Translations under genes and position numbers: made by a program
The notes under the pieces: generated by a model
The model's database searches: none
What the model was told of the DNA's origin: nothing
The model's input: only the letters and a program-made list of their open reading frames with translations
Assembly (NCBI GenBank): GCA_963705305.1
Contig: OY970067.1
Span: forward strand, 1,248,001-1,312,000
DNA: 64,000 nt
Reading direction: 5' to 3'
Source: an uncultured Methylomirabilota bacterium
GTDB lineage: Bacteria > Methylomirabilota > Methylomirabilia > Methylomirabilales > 2-02-FULL-66-22
Part shown: piece after piece, positions 57,246 through 64,000 of the stretch
How the letters are laid out: each line of letters begins with the position of its first letter
How positions within the stretch are numbered: position 1 is the stretch's first letter

Positions 57246-58380
57246 GTGATCTGTAACAGAAATAGCTTTACAATCAGGTGCTGTATGTGTACAAGGGCTC
57301 ATGTTTACTCCAGCGCGGGCGCTCACGATCGACGAGAATCAGCGGAAGCGACTCCGGTTCCTGGCGAACTCGGGCAAGACACCGCAGAAGGTGGCCCTGC
57401 GGGCCCGGATCGTCCTGCTGGCCAGCGAGGGCGTCCCCAACAACGCCAGCGCGGCGCGGCTGGGCACCAGTCGCCCGACGGTGCTGCTGTGGCGGAGCCG
57501 GTTTCAGGCCCGCGGGGCGCCCGGGCTGCTGAAGGAGGCGCCGCGGCCAGGCCGCAAGAAGGCTCTCTCGCCTGCGGTCGTGAAGCGGGTGGTCGAGGCG
57601 ACCTTGCACAGTACCCCGCGGGGGGCGACGCACTGGAGCACCCGCACCCTGGCCAAGGCCCAGGGCCTCTCCCACATGACGGTCCAGCGGATCTGGAAGC
57701 AGCATGGGCTGCAGCCGCACCGGGTGGAGACTTTCAAGCTCTCCCGCGATCCCCACTTTGTCGAGAAGCTGCGCGACGTGGTGGGGCTGTACCTCGATCC
57801 GCCGGACCGGGCCCTGGTCCTGTCGGTGGACGAGAAGAGCCAAATCCAGGCCCTCGACCGGACCCAACCGGGGCTGCCGATGAAGCGGGGCCGCTGCGGC
57901 ACGATGACCCACGACTACAAGCGCCACGGGACCACCACCCTCTACGCGGCCCTCTGCCTGCTCGATGGCAAGGTCATCGGCCAGTGTCTGCCCCGGCACC
58001 GCAGCCAGGAGTTCCTCCGCTTCCTCCGTACCCTCGATCAGCAGACGCCGGCGGCCCTGGACCTGCATCTCATCGTGGACAACTACGGCACCCACAAGAG
58101 CCCCCCGGTCCAGCGCTGGCTCCACCGCCACCCGCGCTTCCATCTCCACTTCACGCCCACGGGCAGCTCCTGGCTCAACCTGGTCGAGCGCTGGTTCCGC
58201 GAGATCACCCAGAAGCGCATCCGTCGCGGCAGCTTCGCCAGCGTCAAGGAGCTCCTGGCCGCGATCCAGGAGTACCTCGATGAGTACAACCGCGCTCCCA
58301 AACGCTTCGTCTGGACCAAGAGCGCTGACATGATCATGACGAAGGTCGATCGTTGTAAAGCAGCGTTAGTTACACAACAC
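57246..58380 (+). mobile_element. IS630-family element, intact transposase 57301-58383
   Basis: TA duplication (57244-45, 58381-82); IR GTGATCTGTAAC / GTGTTGTGTAAC; VDEKSQIQAL, DNY.TH and SWLNLVERWF motifs. Confidence 0.95.
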
Positions 58381-59603
58381 TAGCTTCCCTCCCTTATCCT
58401 CTGCGCGCACCCGCGGCAGAGGTGTTCGGGAAGGCCAGCATGAACTGGGCATTGGTCCGGCGAACACGGGGACTCGTACCCGCAGAGGTACGCAAGGACC
58501 GTGCATCTATTCCCTCGCCAATTCCGACCCTGCAGGGGAGGGCACAGGTCCCGGATTCGGGAACCGCGGCGGAATACGCAGGTGTCGAAGGCCCGGGCAT
58601 TACACATCTCGGCCGCATACTCGAAGGACACGTCGAACTGTTCAAGGTAGGCCCCCTCCGGCAACCGCCGGTCGGCCTTCAGGGTATCGTGCCATTCGCG
58701 AAGCGTTCCGGGCAGCACAGGCCGGCCGAAGGCGTGCGTGAAGAAGAAACTGTTCCACACGTCTCCGGGGACTTCGAGCGCACTGAGCAGGGTGAGCCCG
58801 CCTCCCCGGAAATACTCGATGATGTCCTGACACCCTGTGGTCTGGAGGGCTGCCAGGAAGGGCGGCATGAGCGCACTGCCCGGCTTCACGTAGTCCCGGA
58901 ACGCCGCCCACACCCGCTTGAAGTACCGGTCGTCCGATGTCATCCAACGGCGGTACTCCCGCTCCAGCACGTGCGGAGAGCCGAAGAGGTCGGCTAATTC
59001 GCGATCCCTGGCATCGATGGCACTCGAGAAGGCAGTTGACCGGGAGGTGGGAAGCTTGTTGGAAGCGCTCCAGTACGTCAGGAGATAGAGCAGGTAGGCA
59101 ACTCGGTGTACCATATCGTCCCCACCGTGCTGGGCTGCGGCTCTCCAGAAGGCGGAATGGTCGGCAAGGTAGCGCATCACGTTCCGACCGTGGTGCGCGA
59201 GAGTGGCGAGCGTTGCGGCGATCGAGAAGAGGTGCATGGGGTAACGCGGCGCGACGCTGATCGGGTCCTGCCCATCCCGCTGGGTGAGGGAGGTGAGCAC
59301 GTCCACCTTCCGGTCCTTCTCGGCCGGGCGGGAGAAGGCGTGGAGGACCGCCAGTGGAGGCCGTCGCGCCTGCGCGTAGTCATGCACCAGTTCAGCGAGA
59401 ATGGGGCCACCTTTCTCCCACACCTGCTGATACGAGCGCTGGGCATCAAGGATGTAGCAGAGCCAATGGGTCAAGACCTGCTCGGCGGGGGGAAGGCGCT
59501 CAAAGACAGGGCCGGGGATCTGACTCTCCGTCCGGTACCAGCGAGCATGGTCTAGCCACGTGACGACCGGCCACATGTTCACCAAGACAGACGGGACTCT
59601 CAT
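58380..59603 (-). CDS. Hypothetical protein with Cys-rich C-terminus, possibly HhH-GPD glycosylase-like
   Basis: 407-aa ORF with GGAGG SD; KR.W...R, L..PGD.W and FD.SF followed by many Cys. Confidence 0.6.
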   Translation of the reverse strand: MRVPSVLVNMWPVVTWLDHARWYRTESQIPGPVFERLPPAEQVLTHWLCYILDAQRSYQQVWEKGGPILAELVHDYAQARRPPLAVLHAFSRPAEKDRKVDVLTSLTQRDGQDPISVAPRYPMHLFSIAATLATLAHHGRNVMRYLADHSAFWRAAAQHGGDDMVHRVAYLLYLLTYWSASNKLPTSRSTAFSSAIDARDRELADLFGSPHVLEREYRRWMTSDDRYFKRVWAAFRDYVKPGSALMPPFLAALQTTGCQDIIEYFRGGGLTLLSALEVPGDVWNSFFFTHAFGRPVLPGTLREWHDTLKADRRLPEGAYLEQFDVSFEYAAEMCNARAFDTCVFRRGSRIRDLCPPLQGRNWRGNRCTVLAYLCGYESPCSPDQCPVHAGLPEHLCRGCAQRIREGS

Positions 59604-59836: not shown

Positions 59837-61006
59837 TCAATTCGACACGGGATGAGCTCGCAGCCACTGATCGAGGGTGGTCGGCGGAGGAACCGTCGGC
59901 AGCCGGAGCAGCCGTGCATACCGATCGATGACCGATGCGCTGGGATCGACGATTGTCGTCCGCGCAGGCACGCAGGCAGTCAACAAGAGCGTCCATACCG
60001 CCGCATCCGCTGGCGGCAGGCTATACCCCACGATCACCGTTTCCTCTGCCGCACGTAGTGCGTCAGCCGCTTTCTTCCACAACCTTCGGAACACGGTGTT
60101 GCCGCTCTCCTCGCCGCCGTAGTCCTTTAGGAAGCTTGGATGAAGCAGAGTCTGGTCTTGGTCGGAGGGTCGTTCCGGCATTGAGGCATCGACCAGGGAG
60201 ATGTCGAGCGCCTGCAGGAACAGCGGGTCGAGAGAGATCTCGGTGCCAAGCGGTGCCGGCGAGAGCGCCTCGCGCGGCAGCGGTCCACCGCCTGCCGCCA
60301 CTGTCGCGCCAGGGCGAAGGTGAGGCTTGCGGTACCATCCCGCGGCCCCGTGCAGGTGCAAGACCTTTACCGCGGACTGCGGAAGCGCGACCGGCGTAGC
60401 AGTACACCTAGGATCGCAGAATACGAGTGTGGTCCCGTAGCCGTCTCTTGCCGACCACTTGCCTTGATGTAGAAGAGCCCGCTCAATGGTCGAGTCGTAG
60501 TTGAATGTGACGACGACATCGCCTGCGGCGAGTCTTTGCCCAAGACTCTGTAGCGCCATCCAGTCGGACGCCCCGTAGCGACCTCGGTCCTCTTCATGTC
60601 GATGTTGGAAATAGGCCTCCATTGCCCAGAGTAGAATCCGCCGGGTCCTCCGGTATTCCTCAATGTCAGGCGTCAGGCGATCGTAATTGGCTTCCGCAGC
60701 TGCGACATCGCCGGGGCCTTGCCTGCTTGCTCTCAGGATGTTGAGCAGCGCCTCATCGCCCAGGAAGTGAGCGAAGTCCAAGGCAGTGAAGATTTGTTCC
60801 AGGTTTCCGCTCCGATACGCCTCGCGAAGCAGCGGGTTGCCATTGCGCTGTAGCCATCCCAGTGTTGCCGGCCAGTCCGCATCGTATTGAAAGCGGTCGA
60901 AACACCTTTCGCAGCTCCGGACGTACCCGTCAATGGATTCGAGCAGCTGTCCGCCGAGCGGGTAGATCGGAAACGATGCTCCGGCTCCAAGGACATAGGT
61001 CCGCAT
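59837..61006 (-). CDS. SIR2-like domain protein
   Basis: LGAGAS, TFNYD..IE, LHLHG and VGYSLP.AD motifs; ATG 61006 after GGAGG. Confidence 0.85.
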   Translation of the reverse strand: MRTYVLGAGASFPIYPLGGQLLESIDGYVRSCERCFDRFQYDADWPATLGWLQRNGNPLLREAYRSGNLEQIFTALDFAHFLGDEALLNILRASRQGPGDVAAAEANYDRLTPDIEEYRRTRRILLWAMEAYFQHRHEEDRGRYGASDWMALQSLGQRLAAGDVVVTFNYDSTIERALLHQGKWSARDGYGTTLVFCDPRCTATPVALPQSAVKVLHLHGAAGWYRKPHLRPGATVAAGGGPLPREALSPAPLGTEISLDPLFLQALDISLVDASMPERPSDQDQTLLHPSFLKDYGGEESGNTVFRRLWKKAADALRAAEETVIVGYSLPPADAAVWTLLLTACVPARTTIVDPSASVIDRYARLLRLPTVPPPTTLDQWLRAHPVSN

Positions 61007-61046
61007 TTGGGCCTCCGGGGTGATCGGCAAGAGAGCTACAAGCTTC

Positions 61047-61970
61047 TCATCCGCCAACCCTTGTCGTCCCGACATACTCCGCGCCTTGAGCGATCGCGGC
61101 CCCGATGTGGCGGAATGCCTCCTGACCGAGCGCGAGGGGATGGACGTTTACCTGGACGGCAAGGGTAAAACGGTCCGCCGTCCGATCCAGCGCGATTGTG
61201 TTAACATGGAAGAGCGCGCCGACAATTAGGCCGTCCTTGGCAACGTCGAGGAGCGCCGCTTTCGTTGTTTCCTGTTCCGAGATCGCGAGGAGCATCCGGC
61301 TCAACCCCTCGGAGGCGCGGTGCTCGTCATAGTAGCCGAGGAAGCTGTCCCCCGGATTCAAGACCCGCGCGACGGAGACCGCGATCAAGCCGAAGGCTCC
61401 TGGCGGTCTGGAGGGGATCTGCCGCTTGAGTTGGGCGTGGGCTTGCTTGATGGCCCGGTCAACGCCGGTTGCCGCGAACGGACGCTTGCATTCGATGAGG
61501 ATCTCGGCCACGCCCAACCGGCAGGTTAGATCGGGATGCTCGCCAAGCTCGACGGGCAGGCCGCCCGCTGCGATCCGCGATGCCAGGTAGAGTTCGAACA
61601 GGGTGTTTCGTGCAGCATTGGTACTACTGGCGTTTTCGTCAGCGAGGAGCGGAGGACCACTCAATACAATCTCAAGCTTGCGCCGCAGGGCCTCGGGATT
61701 CACGTTCCGCAGTTGCTCCAGCGCCTCCGCAAACTCGAGCCCTTCGATCAGGGCCGTCGCGAAATGAACTTGATCATTATGGAGTCGCTCCGCCCTCTGT
61801 GGCGGGATGTCGTTGACGTTGCCGGGCTCGATCAACGAAATCAACTCCTGGATCTTCCGCCGGTGTTCGCTGAACCTGCCACGGCCTACAAGGTCGGCCA
61901 GCCCCACGGAGCGGCAGACTTCAGAAGCCCGGTCGAGCTTGTCCAACACATCCTGAAACCGAATAGGCAT
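61047..61970 (-). CDS. Hypothetical protein with PD-(D/E)xK-like motif
   Basis: FEL.LA....PDL......IECKR.........A..QL pattern. Confidence 0.6.
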   Translation of the reverse strand: MPIRFQDVLDKLDRASEVCRSVGLADLVGRGRFSEHRRKIQELISLIEPGNVNDIPPQRAERLHNDQVHFATALIEGLEFAEALEQLRNVNPEALRRKLEIVLSGPPLLADENASSTNAARNTLFELYLASRIAAGGLPVELGEHPDLTCRLGVAEILIECKRPFAATGVDRAIKQAHAQLKRQIPSRPPGAFGLIAVSVARVLNPGDSFLGYYDEHRASEGLSRMLLAISEQETTKAALLDVAKDGLIVGALFHVNTIALDRTADRFTLAVQVNVHPLALGQEAFRHIGAAIAQGAEYVGTTRVGG

Positions 61971-62042
61971 AGTCTCGTTCCTTGCACCGTCATTACGCCG
62001 ATGTCGCGCCCTGCGCAAGTTGATTCTGCTATTCCGCCTGCC

Positions 62043-62399
62043 TCAGGAGAGAAGCGGCAGGCCCTTCGGGGTCATCGCGTCTAGGATGGGGTGCGTCAGG
62101 AATGCGAAGCCGAGGGAAATCAATAGACGCTTTTGATTCGATTCGATGTCGGGGCGTTGCCACAAGCGGCGGAGGCCGGCGGCGGCAGCGAAGTTCAAAG
62201 CGAGTCCATGGACTAGCGCCCGATGGTTCGGATGAACGGCGGGCTCAAGCACGTCAGGCAGGCAAGCCAGCGCAGCCCCGGCCGCGATAGCGACCAAGAA
62301 TTCCCCAAGAGTCGGCTGTTCGTCTGCCATCTTGCAGAAACCCAGATATGCGACGCCGCCGACTGCGGCGCCTGCTACCGCGTGTCCCGATCTGTTCAC
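62043..62399 (-). CDS. YdjM/DUF457-like membrane metal-dependent hydrolase
   Basis: N-terminal H, LPD.LEP...HR...H and H..LD..T..G.P motifs; GTG overlaps the upstream TGA (GTGA). Confidence 0.85.
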   Translation of the reverse strand: MNRSGHAVAGAAVGGVAYLGFCKMADEQPTLGEFLVAIAAGAALACLPDVLEPAVHPNHRALVHGLALNFAAAAGLRRLWQRPDIESNQKRLLISLGFAFLTHPILDAMTPKGLPLLS

Positions 62400-63238
62400 A
62401 ATGCGGCCTCCTTCGCGGCTGCCCTGTCCTTTGCAGCACAGCAATGGCCATAGCTCTTGCCTGATCCGCACCGGCAGGGATCCTTGGAACCGAGGAATCG
62501 CAAGATTTCGGACGGCTCGTGGCCGACCACACTGCCTGGCCAGGCTTCTTCAATCCCGACACCGCGCTCCCGCGCCTCGACCCACGCCAAGTGCTTCCCG
62601 AGCCAAATAGCGGTGTAGTTTGCGTATTCGCGGACTCCACGCAGTGGCCATGTCCAGGCTCTATCGGCGGGGAAGAGGACGCAGAGGGCGTCGATGTCGT
62701 TGAGCATATGCGGGGGCGGTCCGCTCGGATGTTGGTGGTCAATCCGGGGCCACAGTGACCGTGCGATGGGACAGCCGGGTGGTCGCCGATATGCAATCTC
62801 GATCCGGAAGCCGCCCGCCAAGAGGCGCCCGAGGCGGAGTGCCGGACGTGGGAAATGTTCCCCTCCGCACTGCTCGTAGTGAGCGAGCGCCCCATCCGTC
62901 ATGACCCGGACAGGACGATCTTCATCCAAGTCTGCCACGATGGCCTGGATCTCCTCTAGATCCATCCCTTCGGGAAACGGGGTGATCGTGCCCCGCCAAG
63001 CGAGCACGAATTCCCCGCATTGTACGCGCTCGACCGCCTCTCGCGGAGTCTGGGGCTCTTCCTGACCGATGCAATCGCGACCCAAGGCGACGGCATGGAT
63101 GATTCTCTGCGGGTCGCGGTGACGACGCCGCACGATTGAAGTGAAAGATGGGTAGGCTGAGTGCATGGCGGTGACCTCCCGCTCCCACCAGGGGGTCAGC
63201 AGTTCAATTTCCCACGGGTTGAGCGGGAGGTTGGCCAT
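62396..63238 (-). CDS. Prokaryotic E2 (UBC-fold)-like protein with C-terminal SEC-C motif, 280 aa
   Basis: W.G.I.P, F.I.I.Y...P..P, PHM.....LC.L.P...W, WL..H..W....WPG; C-terminal DPCRCGSGKSYGHCC; ATG after GAGGTGG. Confidence 0.7.
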   Translation of the reverse strand: MANLPLNPWEIELLTPWWEREVTAMHSAYPSFTSIVRRRHRDPQRIIHAVALGRDCIGQEEPQTPREAVERVQCGEFVLAWRGTITPFPEGMDLEEIQAIVADLDEDRPVRVMTDGALAHYEQCGGEHFPRPALRLGRLLAGGFRIEIAYRRPPGCPIARSLWPRIDHQHPSGPPPHMLNDIDALCVLFPADRAWTWPLRGVREYANYTAIWLGKHLAWVEARERGVGIEEAWPGSVVGHEPSEILRFLGSKDPCRCGSGKSYGHCCAAKDRAAAKEAAL

Positions 63239-63248
63239 GTCATCCACC

Positions 63249-63368
63249 TCACCAGGTTCCATGCGGCCGAGGTGGGTGGACAACTCCGCCGGGCGGCTCC
63301 GGTCGCGGCGGGTGCTGCGGGTGGGGCGGATGGGGGTGCGGATGCTCCTGGTGATCGTCCTTCGACAT
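63249..63368 (-). CDS. 39-aa His/Pro-rich peptide MSKDDHQEHPHPHPPHPQHPPRPEPPGGVVHPPRPHGTW
   Basis: Translated by hand; AAGGAG SD just upstream; TGA at 63249-51 runs into the SD of the E2-like gene; lies under a consensus promoter. Confidence 0.7.
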   Translation of the reverse strand: MSKDDHQEHPHPHPPHPQHPPRPEPPGGVVHPPRPHGTW

Positions 63369-63464
63369 TTCAGACTCCTTCTGTGCTGAGCCCCTCCCCG
63401 GCGACGGGCCCCGTTTCGATGATGGATGCCGGGCTCCAGTATCGTGTACGGGAATTTCTCGCGT

Positions 63465-63566: not shown

Positions 63567-63956
63567 ATGCCGGAAGGCATCGACGTGGGGCAGTTGGGCG
63601 ATCGACTCAGGCGAGTCCGAACCGAACGGCGACTGACATTGCGAGAGGTCGCAGGGGCGACGGGTATCAGTATCCCTTCACTCTCACGGATCGAGCGTGG
63701 TGCGGCCAAGGAATTCAAGAGCGGAACGCTGCTTAGCCTTGCGCAGTGGTTGGGGACCAACCTGAATGACTTGACGGGCTCGCCCTCTCCCGTCACGCGC
63801 CGCCACGGTAAGATCGTCGAAGCGACTCCCGACGTGGTGGAACTGCATCTCCGCGCGGACAAGAAGCTGAACAAGAAGAGCGCTACCGCCCTCGCGAACC
63901 TGTTTCGCACGGCGTACGAACAGCTAGCCAAGACGGGTGACAAGGAAGAGCCGTGA
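63567..63956 (+). CDS. XRE-family HTH transcriptional regulator
   Basis: LTLREVA..TGIS..SLSRIERG; AAGGAGG SD before ATG 63567. Confidence 0.9.
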   Translation: MPEGIDVGQLGDRLRRVRTERRLTLREVAGATGISIPSLSRIERGAAKEFKSGTLLSLAQWLGTNLNDLTGSPSPVTRRHGKIVEATPDVVELHLRADKKLNKKSATALANLFRTAYEQLAKTGDKEEP

Positions 63957-64000
63957 TGTTCCTGCCGTTTAGTGAGCGAGGCAAGCGGTGGGAACCGGTC
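63956..64000 (+). CDS. Start of a translationally coupled ORF (MFLPFSERGKRWEP...), truncated by the window edge
   Basis: TGATG stop-start overlap with the XRE gene; too short to classify. Confidence 0.4.
   Translation, partial: MFLPFSERGKRWEPV

Follow-up and report, generated by a model that had tools for sequence, protein, structure and literature searches.

In the 64,000-nucleotide stretch of DNA analysed here (the window), a gene for a 39-amino-acid peptide directly precedes the gene for a stand-alone E2 enzyme with a C-terminal SEC-C motif. The peptide ORF is confirmed as real and beyond chance, and the peptide gene is under purifying selection. Conservation among the peptides, which are 32-52 aa long, is confined to roughly the last eight residues, and the composition of the body varies. 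From the sequences, and by analogy with characterized E2 enzymes, we consider it probable that the peptide is a tail-only tag, which the E2 would trim at Gly37 and ligate to lysines of target proteins under CapH/CapP-type control. The features of the locus are as follows.

63249-63368, minus strand: 39-aa His/Pro-rich micropeptide gene (candidate tag), conserved upstream of E2-SEC-C homologs, dN/dS 0.083
63258-63281, minus strand: conserved tail motif Val30-Gly37 (predicted recognition/cleavage site), from the alignment of 19 peptides
63252-63257, minus strand: Thr-Trp extension past Gly37, variable and predicted to be removed, from the tails of relatives
63375-63382, minus strand: Shine-Dalgarno-like AGAAGGAG of the peptide gene, 6 nt 5' of the ATG
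63244-63250, minus strand: Shine-Dalgarno-like GAGGTGG of the E2 gene, overlapping the peptide stop codon
63465-63493, minus strand: sigma70-like promoter, consensus match only (TTGACT-17-TATCAT)
62396-63238, minus strand: 280-aa stand-alone E2 (E2-CBASS family fold), from fold, profile and residue mapping
62043-62399, minus strand: YdjM-family membrane protein (PF04307, E 7.7e-10), start overlapping the E2 stop
63567-63956, plus strand: divergent XRE-family HTH repressor, CapH/ImmR-like (HTH_31 E 2.5e-12; capH E 4e-4)
63953-64000, plus strand: start of an IrrE/ImmA-like metallopeptidase gene, CapP-like (Peptidase_M78 E 3.1e-9; capP E 2.1e-5)

The peptide gene and its surroundings

The peptide is encoded on the minus strand from 63368 to 63249, and its product is MSKDDHQEHPHPHPPHPQHPPRPEPPGGVVHPPRPHGTW (39 aa), with 8 His and 3 hydrophobic residues; it has no Pfam or NCBIfam match and is likely unstructured. 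Its stop codon is a TGA, overlapped by the GAGGTGG of the E2 gene, and the E2 ATG (63238) lies 10 nt past the stop. The sigma70-like site (63493-63465, minus strand) lies about 100 nt 5' of the peptide and is the single match, with 0.4 expected in shuffled sequences, which probably makes the peptide gene the first of its operon; a scan of the promoter region for repeats found none of note. The first-pass annotation had described a strong Shine-Dalgarno sequence, first place in the operon and a stop abutting the next Shine-Dalgarno sequence, and these signals bear it out. A Shine-Dalgarno-like motif also stands ahead of the ATG in all 20 of the peptides located in homologous loci. Gene callers overlook the peptide, and some merge its +1 frame into the E2 gene as a false extension. 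The E2 reading frame is +1 relative to the peptide in 11 of 11 close relatives; the E2 start in the +1 frame is seen at 63249-63238 (minus strand) in the window and in L001-L011 and L020. In L005 no standard start codon is present where one is expected, so coupling or recoding at the peptide stop is possible.

Selection on the peptide frame was assessed in 11 close relatives, on the 23 codons up to and including the Gly. Of the 32 columns that vary, 22 are third codon positions. Where paired codons differ, the change in the peptide frame is synonymous in 481 cases and non-synonymous in 150, and the other two plus-sense frames give 34/620 and 29/620. The median NG86 dN/dS is 0.083 over 55 pairs, which are not independent of one another. 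Since selection acts on the peptide frame, the idea that this DNA encodes an N-terminal extension of the E2 is ruled out.

The operon runs from the peptide through the E2 (63238-62396) to the YdjM gene (62399-62043). A tblastn search with YdjM found no match in the other fetched loci, and we rejected this protein as a component of the system because it is locus-specific and outside the conserved core. The divergent IrrE-type peptidase gene runs past the window edge to about 64609 and adjoins the peptide operon; of the 11 other peptide loci tested, 9 likewise have a gene of this type next to the operon. Within 20 kb in this genome, a crude tblastn search (two cyclases served as queries) detected no gene for an E1, a JAB or a cyclase, and the nearest matches above cut-off to ThiF (E1) and JAB lie more than 1 Mb away.

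Three genes downstream of the operon (59837-61075, 61047-62018 and 58380-59603, all on the minus strand) belong to an island with a GC content of 0.61-0.63, compared with 0.66 for the genome. One encodes a SIR2/AbiH-like protein, recognized by weak matches; the products of the other two match nothing in Pfam, PADLOC or NCBIfam. A 360-aa ORF at 57301-58383 (plus strand) is presumably an IS630-family transposase. Beyond the window, after the IrrE-type gene (G000:C1, about 1312943-1317102), are genes that we take to be a type III restriction-modification pair.

Upstream partners across the E2 family

Searches with the 280-aa E2 yielded 23 close proteins and 171 representatives at E <=0.001, 150 of which were listed. 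Loci were collected from metagenomes (19), from genomes through an alignment query (two) and from further genome searches. The family is sporadic: strict cut-offs gave hits in 7 of 401, 8 of 401 and 1 of 301 genomes. Across 251 genomes of the organism's own phylum, 224 were matched, nearly all through the SEC-C motif alone, so only matches spanning the E2 domain were kept; one full-length E2 match remained besides this genome. A single-protein scan of genome contigs confirmed none of its 32 candidates. Viral contigs gave no match to the window E2 (A1) and four short partial matches to a distant E2 (L070-L073), and plasmids gave none in tblastn with two distant E2s. Once duplicate entries (L022, L057, L069) and the five loci of classical E2-CBASS were set aside, 34 loci of this E2 type remained besides the window, several of them on short contigs. 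One of these, L019, includes only 30 nt upstream of the E2, which leaves 33 assessable loci.

The check proposed in the first-pass annotation was a search for an ORF with a conserved C-terminal motif upstream of E2/SEC-C homologs, and it succeeded: a stand-alone peptide of 32-52 aa lies directly upstream of the E2-SEC-C gene in 22 of the 33 assessable loci. Removal of the near-duplicates L004, L013, L014 and L018 leaves 18. The linkage holds at loci whose E2 is 26-32% identical to that of the window, and the spacing and frame between peptide and E2 vary in distant loci (in frame, +1 or +2). A crude tblastn search found no E1, JAB or cyclase gene in the 23 peptide loci, several of which are short. 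In the fetched loci, no acceptor or effector gene is conserved downstream of the E2. In one subclade a small HNH protein (Pfam HNH) directly follows the E2 (L012:3001-3435, L016:2816-3232), and a similar ORF follows it in L015 and L018; the HTH and IrrE domains are fused in this subclade.

The consensus of the peptide tail is [VI]xP[PR][RP][PST][HF]G followed by 1-2 free residues (once 7). In an alignment of 19 peptides, which left out a peptide without the Gly (L026), all 19 carry V or I at -7, P at -5, H or F at -1 and G. Only Pro32 and Gly37 are invariant. Across the peptide loci Gly37 is kept in 22 of 23, and the residues beyond it vary freely; the endings after the Gly in relatives are TW, TR, SR, NQ, DR, DQ, S, AK, GR, SH and one 7-residue tail (L063). 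The first-pass annotation had singled out an HGTW ending; its G is conserved, the residue before the G is His or Phe, and the W occurs in this copy alone, with GTR as the ending in the closest relatives. Peptide bodies range from His/Pro-rich to Asp/Glu/Arg-rich, with widely differing numbers of Pro and from 1 to 10 His (5-10 in close relatives, as few as 1-4 in four peptides); at the only conserved His, 5 of the 19 aligned peptides have Phe. In a six-frame scan of this genome, the strict form of the tail motif matched once before 188,347 stops and the broad form ten times; no second copy of the strict motif was found.

Eight loci without a peptide instead carry a CBASS cyclase, a Pycsar-type cyclase or a DUF3892 protein with a similar tail. 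In L055 a CD-NTase that ends in VPRPTFGSDE stands beside SAVED, upstream of the E2. Five loci (L058, L062, L066, L067 and L068) have a DUF3892 protein with a related, Pro-rich tail directly upstream of the E2-SEC-C gene; one of these proteins has its Pfam match below cut-off, and the residue at the scissile position is Gly in two, Ser in one and Ala in two. The DUF3892 proteins are probably another class of conjugated modifier. At two loci the upstream genes encode Pycsar-type cyclases ending in SSWAT and KSFAE. The CdnG proteins of classical E2-CBASS, matched by the same profile, end in NTFYG plus 1-2 residues. No recognizable upstream partner was found in L008 and L056.

Some of these loci deserve description in their own right. 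L055 (27-2283) is a CBASS locus of SAVED, CD-NTase and an E2 of the SEC-C subfamily; the tail of its 299-aa cyclase nearly matches those of the peptides, and the protein is about 80 aa or more shorter than CdnG of classical E2-CBASS. In L059 (6-2972) and L060 (1405-3370) the Pycsar-type cyclase lies directly upstream of a single E2-SEC-C gene and its tail is an aromatic residue and Ala plus one residue; L059 also has a cNMP-TIR effector. The DUF3892 region of L058 spans 1097-2295. In L026 (1044-1977) a similar peptide, Lys/Asp-rich and lacking the Gly, stands upstream of an E2 with Gln in place of His177. This is possibly a natural inactive pair, and the joint loss of Gly and His177 is compatible with co-decay as well as with a non-covalent role.

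Of the 150 distant homologs listed, 15 have the E2 fused in frame to a Pro-rich leader that ends in the tail motif, and one further fusion (P0058) fits by eye. Among the matches listed, 20 have an N-terminal extension of at least 30 aa; 14 of these contain the motif, against a mean of 2.2 (maximum 7) in 1000 shuffles. At positions outside the search pattern, the fusions among the matches listed have V or I at -7 in 12 of 15 and K or R at -6 in 10 of 15. The P0158 fusion is present on 77 contigs, and the P0110 cluster has eight members, five of them full-length. A member of a fusion cluster, P0207, has Cys in place of the Gly. The fusions were seen as database proteins and not at DNA level, and for some cluster members the gene call begins at an internal start or is broken into two genes. 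In the predicted fold of the natural fusion P0158, the pLDDT of the leader is 45-57, with a mean of 57 over residues 41-50. With order in this tail predicted at such low confidence and Gly50 lying right against helix 1, the model gives no sign of docking in cis, and cleavage in cis looks unlikely.

A tree of the E2 domains (45 rows, near-duplicates and partial E2s left out) places the CdnG-type E2s in a separate clade (100/100). Fused and stand-alone forms interleave in two supported clades, one that joins fusions with L064, L065 and the CBASS E2 of L055 (99/92) and one in which their neighbours are L021 and the loci with DUF3892 (99/95). L026, which has a long branch, is the sister of the clade that includes the window. 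The peptide occurs across most of the tree, which is rooted for drawing only, and no order of events is therefore drawn from it.

The E2 enzyme and related systems

The window E2 belongs to the E2-CBASS enzyme family (PF26395). The best structural match of its AlphaFold model (pLDDT 93.4) is Serratia SmE2 (Foldseek rank 1, E 0.14). VIA also places SmE2 first, with Z 8.9, rmsd 4.9 and 143 aligned residues, in a tie with UFC1 at 8.5, and its best 50 rows are E2/UEV/RWD-type entries. The PADLOC models for CBASS E2s match the window E2 weakly (E 9e-5), and PF26395, named E2-CBASS, is precomputed on 18 of the 23 close homologs. The family profile matches the E2 of the E2-CBASS locus L033 with 96% probability, and that E2 in turn matches SmE2 (E 5.5e-23). 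A PDB sequence search with the window E2 matched SEC-C motifs only.

The main features of the enzyme are His177, Cys186 and His240, an insertion with His120, Cys124 and His128, and the SEC-C motif (253-268) that occupies its C-terminus. Through the L033 E2, His177 and Cys186 map to the catalytic His87 and Cys101 of SmE2; His240 was mapped by motif and sits after the same W-x-G as His152, the pH sensor of SmE2. The three residues are conserved in 99, 100 and 93 of 100 sequences, respectively. No equivalent of K159, the C-terminal lysine to which SmE2 links itself, was found, the only Lys-rich columns being K215 (87/100) and K261 (38/100). In the insertion (residues 103-128), His120 is kept in 82, Cys124 in 83 and His128 in 72 of 100 sequences, with Asp residues nearby; judged by these residues, it is possibly a second metal site. 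The His/Cys/His insertion is absent from classical E2-CBASS E2s and is not intact in DUF3892-linked E2s. Complex prediction for peptide and E2 scored 0.84, compared with 0.65 for an unrelated 39-residue control, and we count this neither for nor against an interaction.

The nearest known system is E2-CBASS, also called type II 'short' CBASS (Serratia marcescens CdnG and SmE2, PDB 8HSB/8YJY; PF26395). SmE2 is reported to strip the residue after Gly406 without cofactors, forming a Cys101 thioester and then an isopeptide; it accepts Ala for the Gly and does not accept Val or Leu, and His87 and His152 are described as specific to E2-CBASS (10.1101/2022.05.25.493364). The window locus likewise has a single E2 of the same fold with no E1 or JAB gene adjacent, retains the equivalents of His87, Cys101 and His152, and has directly upstream a gene whose product ends in an aromatic residue or His, Gly and 1-2 removable residues. 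It differs in that the upstream partner is a foldless peptide of 32-52 aa rather than a 400-aa cyclase, that peptide and E2 are in some cases one fused protein, and that the 280-aa E2 has a His/Cys/His insertion and SEC-C and lacks K159. The locus contains no CD-NTase gene, second messenger or effector (SAVED, patatin, TM) and is, for want of cyclase and effector, not a CBASS. The system would work like E2-CBASS but belongs to neither E2-CBASS nor Pup.

Pup is a small intrinsically disordered modifier that carries its information in its C-terminus and ends in GGE/GGQ; it is ligated through its terminal Glu by an ATP-dependent ligase of the glutamine-synthetase fold (PafA/Dop) and feeds the proteasome. 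The window peptide resembles it only in its disorder and in the location of the information at the C-terminus. Unlike Pup, it has a tail of [HF]G plus variable residues, its adjacent enzyme has an E2 fold, and it has no match to Pfam Pup. The type I Bub system (BubAB Ubl-E2; PMC11601596) offers another parallel, since its modifier is described as N-terminal to the E2 and freed at a conserved Gly, and CapH/CapP is reported to be frequently associated with it. In Bub the modifiers are beta-grasp Ubls, an E1 takes part, a JAB peptidase does the cutting, and the chemistry runs through Ser/Tyr oxyesters (PMC11601596). In the window, unlike in Bub or Bil, no Ubl fold, E1 or JAB is present nearby, and the predicted nucleophile is a Cys. 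A divergent HTH gene and an IrrE-type metallopeptidase upstream of the operon recall CapH/CapP, which is also reported beside DUF3892 and ubiquitin-related operons (10.1101/2022.04.27.489752); none of the operons described in the accessible part of that report consists of a peptide and a lone E2-SEC-C. The PADLOC capH and capP matches in the window are weak (4e-4 and 2e-5). All operons in the accessible E2 operon table of PMC1779556 include an E1, and SEC-C is absent from its text.

Proposed function and competing explanations

In the mechanism that we favour, which is modelled on CapH/CapP for its regulation and on SmE2 for its chemistry, the HTH/IrrE pair would relieve repression of the operon under stress, with DNA damage or phage as the likely inducers. 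The E2 would bind the tail of the peptide, cut after Gly37 and keep the energy of the bond as a Cys186 thioester. Residues 1-37 would then pass to a lysine of a target protein, forming an isopeptide, probably without an E1 or ATP. Once attached, the His/Pro- or acid-rich body could serve as a steric block, a degradation mark or a metal-binding handle.

A more general proposal, which we hold tentatively and with slightly less than even confidence, is that of two-gene, ATP-free tagging, in which the E2-SEC-C enzyme would be a transpeptidase that reads an 8-residue tail, cuts behind its Gly and ligates a foldless peptide, His/Pro-rich or acidic, to host or phage proteins during stress. The tail would then be a portable conjugation signal, borne by peptides, by CBASS and Pycsar cyclases and by DUF3892 proteins, and a fused E2 would carry its tag as a pro-segment.

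The first-pass annotation had proposed a disordered, Pup-like tag with a Gly exposed by trimming. At the level of sequence the tag and its trimming are well supported: the retention of Gly37, the free residues after it, the cyclases with the same tail, the E2 fusions and the SmE2 protease/ligase residues all point in this direction. The likeness to Pup stands only as an analogy, and kinship fails on the E2 fold of the partner and on a tail that ends at Gly. Several observations weigh against the tag: K159 has no equivalent, no effector is conserved, and SmE2 is reported to require a folded C-terminal CdnG motif and three non-covalent interfaces, with linkage abolished by R360D (PMC12948482). 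Since a bare peptide cannot supply the CdnG fold or these interfaces, recognition of the tail would fall to the E2 insertion or to SEC-C. The exceptions to the sequence pattern, namely L026, L008, L056, the Ser or Ala in three of the five DUF3892 tails and the Cys of P0207, also count against it, as do the P0158 model, the status of the fusions as database proteins, the short contigs of several loci and the E1 and JAB genes elsewhere in this genome.

The main rival reading is that the peptide is no tag for other proteins and instead a plug or pro-peptide seated in the E2 active site, which would silence a protease or effector function of the enzyme until released by some trigger; the plug might be non-covalent, a dead-end thioester or a self-isopeptide, like the inhibited CdnG-SmE2 adduct. 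The default product of SmE2 is reported to be a self-linked cGAS-E2 with lowered cyclase activity (10.1101/2022.05.25.493364), in-frame peptide-E2 fusions resemble pro-segments, an acceptor or effector gene is conserved nowhere downstream, and L026 retains a similar Gly-less peptide beside an E2 that lacks His177. However, a non-covalent plug would not need the scissile Gly found in 22 of 23 loci, where a non-cleavable residue would serve better, and the surroundings of the C-terminal loop show no conserved Lys that could act as a self-acceptor. That folded cyclases and DUF3892 proteins bear the same tail speaks instead for a portable conjugation signal, and we regard the plug as unlikely. It is more doubtful still that the peptide is a leader that steers translation of the E2, through stalling at Pro-Pro or His codons or through coupling, and has no later function. 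Its first position, the overlap of its stop with the next Shine-Dalgarno sequence, its many PP motifs and the constant +1 frame of the E2 in close relatives would suit a leader, yet in distant loci spacing and frame vary, His and Pro counts differ widely, 15 of 150 homologs among the matches listed have the peptide fused to the E2, and the conserved part resembles cyclase tails that are processed by enzymes.

The first-pass annotation had also offered a metal-binding peptide that acts with the SEC-C domain and the metal-dependent hydrolase. A His-rich peptide or metallochaperone for the SEC-C zinc site and YdjM would be in keeping with the 8 His in 39 residues here, the 5-10 in close relatives and an E2 that has a second His/Cys/His cluster besides SEC-C. 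This reading is weak because neither the Trp, nor the His run, nor YdjM is conserved: YdjM is absent from all other fetched loci, four peptides have only 1-4 His, and the conserved His gives way to Phe in 5 of 19. It leaves unexplained the invariant residues, Pro32 and Gly37, and the catalytic residues of the E2, and we give it very little credence; the peptide may bind Ni or Zn incidentally. Least probable of all is that the peptide is the functionless 3' remnant of a lost CD-NTase gene, kept as the ribosome-binding site of the E2. A genuine CBASS, L055, does have an E2 of the same family and a tail that is almost the same, but the dN/dS of 0.083 largely refutes a remnant, all 20 located peptides have their own Shine-Dalgarno sequence and ATG, length changes keep the frame, and the peptide is found across most of the E2 tree.

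A literature search found no description of an operon of a peptide and a lone E2-SEC-C; most subscription papers, bioRxiv supplements and extended-data alignments lay outside its reach, and operon tables there could hold such loci. What the bacterial E2 systems known so far attach is either a folded ubiquitin-like protein, as in Bil and Bub, or an enzyme, as with the cyclases of CBASS. Were a bare tail enough, a 39-aa peptide would be all that is needed as modifier and a single 280-aa enzyme all that is needed as ligase, E1, peptidase and ATP being dispensable, and the pair could provide a sortase-like tool for protein labelling. The peptide accounts for 'orphan' E2-SEC-C genes whose partner is missed by gene callers. 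If the tag proposal is true, no ubiquitin-like tagging system described so far would be simpler, and it would be a minimal form of ubiquitin-like conjugation that would show the CBASS tail to be a portable signal and would bear on the origin of ubiquitin-like tagging.
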